A program made the position numbers and the translations under genes. A model generated the notes under the pieces. The model was not told where the DNA came from and ran no database searches. It saw only the letters and a list, made by a program, of their open reading frames with translations. Shown here piece by piece: positions 10,155 to 10,173 of a DNA stretch of 64,000 nucleotides (positions are counted from its first letter, which is position 1; each line of letters starts with the position of its first letter). The stretch lies in the NCBI RefSeq assembly GCF_057098645.1, contig NZ_CM169472.1; one strand, given 5' to 3'.

Positions 10155-10173
10155 GTGCTTTCCCCGCCTCGCC
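10155..10173. other. P2/P4-type cos site (19-nt cohesive end sequence)
   Basis: gtgctttccccgcctcgcc is the reverse complement of the P2/P4 cohesive end GGCGAGGCGGGGAAAGCAC as I recall it; located just downstream of psu, as in P4. Confidence 0.65.

Follow-up and report, generated by a model that had tools for sequence, protein, structure and literature searches.

The EcoO109I restriction-modification (R-M) genes of strain H709c are reported (Kita et al. 1999, J Bacteriol 181:6822) to belong to a P4 prophage integrated at leuX, where they occupy the segment from int to psu, and a copy of IS21 reportedly resides in sid of that prophage. In P4-like satellites, a defence hotspot between psu and int is located directly adjacent to cos; this hotspot is found in 26% of E. 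coli genomes, averages 2.6 kb and includes type II R-M systems among its cargo (Rousset et al. 2022, PMC9122126). The preprint of Rousset et al. names "the type-II EcoO109I RM system", and these authors cite Kita et al. 1999 as an earlier reported case. The core gene set of P4-like satellites consists of int, psu, delta, sid and alpA, plus epsilon and alpha (Moura de Sousa & Rocha 2022, PMC8628076). Both the arrangement described here and its general interpretation are already published, and EcoO109I is the first R-M system reported in the hotspot. The points that are specific to the present copy are limited to an insertion sequence (IS) in epsilon, an oversize genome and a stop codon in the controller gene.

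The DNA analysed here, a stretch of 64,000 nucleotides that is referred to as the window throughout, contains a satellite prophage with the limits 6008-20343 that is integrated at leuX. We consider it very probable that positions 10155-10173 of the window lie within the cos packaging site of this P4-type satellite, the present copy of which has been crippled by recent lesions. From left to right, the locus consists of tRNA-Leu, int, the C-R-M cargo, cos, psu/delta/sid on the minus strand, alpA/orf88, the immunity RNA, epsilon, orf151, orf106, alpha, crr-like repeats and an att core. This gene order is that of the P4 prophage map, and the encoded proteins are 97.6-100% identical to those of P4, save for Int (91.5%). 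The features of the satellite backbone are as follows.

5923-6007, plus strand: tRNA-Leu(CAA), leuX (ARAGORN, Rfam tRNA)
5988-6007, plus strand: attL core, the 3' 20 nt of leuX, GAGTCCGGCCTTCGGCACCA, identical to the P4 attP core (20/20)
6160-7446, plus strand: satellite integrase, a P4-type tyrosine recombinase, 91.5% amino acid identity to P4 Int (Pfam Arm-DNA-bind_3, Phage_int_M, Phage_integrase)
10338-10910, minus strand: psu (polarity suppression / capsid decoration), 99.5% amino acid identity to P4 (Pfam Psu, E=1e-88)
10984-11484, minus strand: delta (Ogr/Delta transactivator that acts on late genes of the helper), 97.6% amino acid identity to P4
11481-12233, minus strand: sid (capsid size determination), 98.8% amino acid identity over all 244 residues of P4 Sid
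12757-13023, plus strand: orf88 / AlpA-Vis-like excisionase-regulator, 98.9% amino acid identity to P4
13082-13358, plus strand: immunity region, with a C4-type CI RNA at 13271-13358 and target sites at 13082-13172 (Rfam RF01695, RF03163 and RF01394, all above the gathering score)
13601-13715, plus strand: epsilon (helper derepression), 5' fragment, codons 1-38, start inferred from the O157 annotation
13716-16352, plus strand: ISSso4-type IS21-family element (istA, istB), 2637 bp (Pfam rve, Mu-transpos_C_2, IstB_IS21)
16361-16533, plus strand: epsilon, 3' fragment
16526-16981, plus strand: orf151, intact, downstream of the IS
17117-17437, plus strand: orf106/DUF5375, intact, downstream of the IS
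17452-19785, plus strand: alpha primase-helicase, intact, downstream of the IS
19831-20131, unstranded: crr-like repeats (cis replication region), with about 82% identity to the crr of P4
20325-20343, plus strand: attR core, 19 nt, GAGTCCGGCCTTCG-CACCA, lacking one G that is present in attL and P4 attP

Six of the core genes, namely int, psu, delta, sid, alpA and alpha, are intact, full-length open reading frames with 91.5-99.5% amino acid identity to P4, and epsilon is the only one that is not intact; the products of orf151, orf106 and alpha are 98.7-100% identical to those of P4. The element was a complete P4-like satellite before the IS insertion. Its architecture is the same as that of the psu-int hotspot of other P4-like elements (PMC9122126; PMC8628076), with the cargo beside cos and of similar size (2.7 kb here versus about 2.6 kb); the present copy additionally contains an IS and a pseudogene in the cargo.

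The packaging site itself comprises the following features.

10155-10173, minus strand: 19-nt cohesive-end sequence (cosN equivalent), the same as P4 1-19 and P2 1-19
10148-10208, unstranded: cos core common to P2-type phages and P4-type satellites, its left edge (10148) coinciding with the cargo boundary
10173-10196, plus strand: GC-rich hairpin CCGCCC-N8-GGGCGG followed by TTTT, within the conserved core and abutting the cohesive-end sequence
10274-10304, unstranded: 11-bp perfect inverted repeat just downstream of psu, candidate psu terminator

The plus strand at 10155-10173 reads GTGCTTTCCCCGCCTCGCC, and its reverse complement, GGCGAGGCGGGGAAAGCAC, is identical (19/19) to bases 1-19 of P4 (NC_001609) and equally to bases 1-19 of P2 (NC_001895), which are annotated in the latter record as 'cosL; left cohesive end'. 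A sequence-only reading of the window had identified this 19-mer as an exact P2/P4 cohesive end located between psu and an R-M module. This identification was correct, and the location is borne out by psu on one side and by the methyltransferase (8768-10021, minus strand) and endonuclease (7912-8730) genes on the other. Within the 64 kb, the 19-mer has a single occurrence, also when up to 3 mismatches are tolerated, whereas dinucleotide shuffles yield an expectation of 0.01, so that a chance match is ruled out. Base 11624, with which the P4 record ends, is aligned to window position 10174, directly adjoining the 19-mer; the window accordingly contains the closed, circular-form cos junction.

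The flanking cos context, which the same reading had proposed to check, is intact. Over the 61-bp core, the window matches P4 (NC_001609 / X51522) at 59/61 positions and P2 at 58/61, and P4 and P2 match each other at 58/61. There are two substitutions relative to P4, at positions 10154 and 10186, and none beyond those that separate functional P2 from functional P4. The 7 bp that follow the 19-mer (TGCGCGC) likewise match P2, and phage 186 (NC_001317) differs at 2/19 positions of the cohesive end. The hairpin stem is the same in P4 and P2 (OU784750), with the differences between the two phages confined to the loop. A 55-bp cos core is credited to Ziermann & Calendar 1990 by papers that cite this work and, as relayed there, agrees with the core in the window. 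On the psu side, P4 8061-11624 aligns to window 13715-10174 at 96.0%, and the identity to P4 from cos through psu is about 96%; the inverted repeat at 10274-10304 is probably the psu terminator. In contrast, to the left of the core the window contains the EcoO109I cargo where P4 carries gop-beta-cII, in the same position between psu and int, and the homology to P2 ends at the core edges.

The distribution of these homologies bears on the possibility that the match belongs to a P2-type phage instead of a satellite, or arose by chance. The identical 19-mer is indeed carried by P2-type prophages, but the right flank of the site in the window is P4 psu at about 96%, no P2 structural genes adjoin it, and the portal gene of P2-like elements sits on the side where the window carries the cargo. 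With a chance expectation of only 0.01, we regard this explanation as having negligible probability; the flanks refute the assignment to a P2 prophage cos. P2-type prophages carry their variable cargo across the core from where P4-like elements do, in the interval from cos to gene A, and their portal gene is found on the remaining side. For example, in a P2-like prophage of E. coli ATCC 8739 (L009 3501-7061), the cargo consists of ParB-like, hypothetical and C5 methyltransferase genes and lies on the opposite core side from that of P4-like elements.

The same partition of conserved and variable sequence is seen across E. coli. Of 5426 complete E. coli genomes, 2440 contain a match to a 301-bp query around cos, and a single genome contains up to 6 such matches. 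Among the matches listed, nearly all start at query position 109, that is, window position 10148; the P4-like ones extend into psu, whereas the P2-like ones end near 10208. In a stack of 10 loci anchored on the 19-mer (the window, P4, 2 P2-type loci and 6 P4-like elements, 5 of these with unrelated cargo), the sequences left of 10148 are unrelated between the elements, whereas the core is nearly invariant. Unrelated cargo thus occupies the same psu-int slot in five other P4-like elements. Some P4-like elements contain a variant cohesive end, ATGCTCTCCCCGCCACGCC (L004 3526-3544; L007 3508-3526; L008 3508-3526), with 3 substitutions, 2 of which are common to phage 186, which hints at cos types matched to helper types.

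All P4-like elements inspected have their cargo boundary at one identical base, which lies 7 bp inside the left cohesive end, and that of P2-like elements is at the opposite core edge. Exchange starting from cos ends has been speculated on previously (Rousset et al. 2022, PMC9122126). The position of the boundary would fit an exchange of cassettes that begins at terminase-cut or freshly injected cos ends, in which case cos would be, besides a packaging signal, the recombination entry point through which EcoO109I was installed; in a lesser variant of this idea, co-resident satellites still mobilise the oversize copy without epsilon in trans, with P2-size heads taking it up as dimers. We hold this proposal to be possible, if rather doubtful.

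The cargo (7447-10147) spans 2701 bp, compared to 2587 bp for gop-beta-cII at the same position of P4, and has a GC content of 37% versus 50% for the element. It contains the following features.

7549-7563, plus strand: C-box CTAAGTATTCCTTAG, upstream of the C gene, exact match to the published C.EcoO109I/C.Csp231I consensus
7614-7919, plus strand: C.EcoO109I controller gene, pseudogene with a GAA-to-TAA change in codon 68 of 101 (7815-7817)
7912-8730, plus strand: R.EcoO109I restriction endonuclease (RGGNCCY), intact, 272/272 residues identical to PDB 1WTD chain A (E=2e-187)
8768-10021, minus strand: M.EcoO109I C5 cytosine methyltransferase, intact (Pfam DNA_methylase PF00145, E=7e-65)

The endonuclease gives only a weak EcoO109I match in Pfam (E=1e-5), and its identity is settled by the PDB sequence search, in which all 272 residues coincide with the enzyme of H709c; the R-M system is the same as that of the H709c prophage. 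The endonuclease is also identical to the copies in O157 and TUM9757, as is the methyltransferase (417/417), which, as far as sequence comparison goes, is the cognate M.EcoO109I. The promoter scan identified a promoter-like site for the methyltransferase gene at 10078-10051 on the minus strand.

The third component of the system is impaired. The consensus CTAAG-N5-CTTAG (PMC6765115) is present upstream of the C gene, and an intact controller protein is absent. Compared to the C genes of O157 and TUM9757, that of the window differs by a single G-to-T change, which creates the stop codon. The 61-mer around this stop has no exact match in 68 complete E. coli genomes that contain the cargo, and all of them differ from it by one base, so that the stop is private to the window. 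The gene is truncated in the window, whereas the enzyme-producing strain H709c presumably lacks the truncation. According to the title of a reference in PMC6765115, C.EcoO109I is a regulator for endonuclease production. With the controller truncated, restriction by EcoO109I is probably reduced in the present copy, and methylation probably persists and may by now be the main activity of the system. The single-base stop could alternatively be a sequencing error.

Over window positions 1-55000, recognition sites for the enzyme are strongly depleted; the satellite has 1 RGGNCCY site compared to about 13 expected from dinucleotide shuffles. The same is true of reference P4, which lacks EcoO109I (0 versus 9.7 expected), of the chromosomal flank (0 versus 3.7) and of the neighbouring island (4 versus 19). 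Site avoidance by a carrier of the R-M system was ruled out by this similar depletion, which reflects background composition.

The integration site shows how the element entered this chromosome. E. coli O145 RM9872 contains the exact empty site (L013 15416-15545): it lacks 6008-20343, its leuX is directly joined to the right flank of the window, and its flanks are 99.96-99.98% identical to those of the window. By this comparison, the element is a clean site-specific insertion into leuX. The same satellite, with 98.3-98.7% identity, is located at leuX in O157:H7 and TUM9757 with other right flanks, and the EcoO109I satellite lineage is accordingly represented in at least three chromosomal contexts. 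The clean empty site in O145 and the three different right flanks argue that the lineage is, or recently was, mobile. It follows that the R-M system of the window arrived on a phage satellite, for which the exact limits (6008-20343) and the cos core are now fixed.

Of the GG that the 20-nt core contains, the attR core retains a single G. The 19-nt form is found in all three satellites that carry EcoO109I (window 20325-20343; L003 13201-13219; L010 19161-19179) despite their different right flanks. The short attR in three contexts, together with the perfect tRNA end at the O145 empty site, indicates that the short core is borne by the element. On these alignments, it must be an attP variant and a trait of the lineage, with the crossover located 3' of the missing base. 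A 1-bp deletion in attR as a sign of decay of the present copy was ruled out, given that the same 19-nt core is found in the O157 and TUM9757 copies.

The other lesion private to the present copy is the IS. This element is flanked by an 8-bp direct repeat, GTTTGTTG (13708-13715 and 16353-16360), splits epsilon after codon 38 and is located between the early promoters and orf151/alpha, in the same operon. In the H709c prophage, the insertion is reportedly IS21 in sid, whereas the window contains an ISSso4-type element in epsilon and an intact sid. Copies of the IS that are 100% identical are present on other E. coli chromosomes and plasmids, where they are annotated as ISSso4 family. The epsilon::IS junction was not found in any complete E. 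coli genome searched, and both the epsilon IS and the C-gene stop are absent from the 68 complete E. coli genomes with the cargo. Removal of the IS in silico yields an uninterrupted epsilon reading frame that is the same as that of P4 from residue 5 on. The identical copies elsewhere, the private junction, the intact duplication and the epsilon frame restored on removal together argue that the insertion is recent.

The IS also affects the size of the genome. The excised circle would be 14,336 bp long, compared to 11,691 bp without the IS and 11,624 bp for P4. The capacity of the small capsid is about 12 kb (Rousset et al. 2022, PMC9122126), and, with the fit taken as about 11-12 kb, it is exceeded at 14,336 bp, the copy being about 2.6 kb oversize. 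According to the literature cited on P4 packaging, DNA of matching size is packaged best, P4 cos plasmids of 5-10 kb are packaged in trans, cos is sufficient by itself in cis, and the substrate consists of closed circles. The cos site of the window is probably still competent in cis as a substrate.

In this satellite family, the terminase of a P2-type helper cuts covalently closed satellite circles at cos, leaving 19-nt 5' cohesive ends, and the DNA is threaded into capsids shrunk by Sid. The cos site occupies its usual place for P4, with psu on one side and the variable slot for int-proximal cargo on the other; here, this slot accommodates EcoO109I C-R-M instead of gop-beta-cII, with the cargo starting 7 bp from the cohesive-end sequence. 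Later damage has split epsilon, brought the predicted excised circle to 14.3 kb, beyond the capacity of the small capsid, and truncated the controller. The IS is likely to keep transcription from reaching orf151 and alpha, and the present copy is probably no longer an autonomous satellite.

Several routes around these defects can be envisaged. Alpha could still be expressed by read-through, as the IS is co-oriented with the epsilon-alpha operon. The loss of epsilon may be tolerated if a helper infects instead of residing as a prophage, or may be complemented by a co-resident satellite, given the up to 6 cos matches per E. coli genome. P2-sized heads might take up the 14.3-kb genome in dimeric form.

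The inference drawn in the sequence-only reading, that the cargo is carried by a still-transducible element, accordingly holds only in part: its cis signals are undamaged, as are most of its genes, and the lineage is or recently was mobile, but in the copy at hand epsilon is split, the circle is oversize and the R-M controller gene contains a stop codon. A fully functional satellite that can be transduced now by a helper, with EcoO109I carried along, would account for the presence of cos, attL, attR, int, alpA, psu, delta, sid, alpha, crr and the CI RNA, all close to P4, and would agree with the acquisition being recent relative to O145 and with cos alone being enough in cis for packaging. It is hard to reconcile with the split epsilon, with an IS placed between the early promoters and alpha, and with 14,336 bp set against a capacity of about 12 kb; moreover, no helper prophage is visible within the 64-kb window. 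We therefore view current transducibility of the whole element as unlikely.

The opposite extreme, an inert cryptic prophage remnant in which the 19-mer is a relic that has no function even in cis, appears very improbable. It would fit the two inactivating lesions (the IS in epsilon and the stop in the C gene) and an attR core one base shorter than attL. However, the lesions are private and recent, as indicated by the 100%-identical IS copies elsewhere, the intact duplication and the restorable epsilon frame; the cos core contains no substitutions beyond the functional differences between P2 and P4; and the short attR is a lineage trait shared by three contexts. In the preferred reading, that of a recently crippled P4-type satellite, the intact cos would reflect the recency of the damage and selection at the level of the family, and is no evidence that the copy is mobile at present: too little time has passed since the damage for cos to decay, so that an intact cos is no proof of current transducibility. 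As a general caution, an intact cos beside cargo is by itself no sign that a given copy is still mobile.

A chromosomal defence island is located to the right of the satellite (23692-38462). Stacked in it are a restriction endonuclease of the PT-DNA-binding kind (23692-24720), followed by Zorya of type II (ZorE/ZorB2/ZorA2, 25104-28634) and Druantia of type III (DruH3/DruE3, 28789-38462). Druantia is followed by a plus-strand cluster of four genes (38686-54909) that encode an SNF2/DrmD-like helicase, a 1636-aa type IIG R-M / DrmMI-like methyltransferase, a DruE-like helicase of 2113 aa that contains an HNH region at its C-terminus, and a UvrD/GajB-like helicase. Immediately right of attR, an open reading frame of 682 aa (21021-23069), annotated by PGAP as a hypothetical protein, shows no match in Pfam, NCBIfam or PADLOC; in 330 complete genomes of E. 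coli, the 3.4-kb segment that holds it (20344-23700) is covered over at least 80% of its length. At its right end (55888-63619), the window consists of the ordinary nanS-nanM-nanC region, an IS5-type transposase and fimB-fimE, which assigns the satellite and the island to the variable leuX-fim locus of E. coli.
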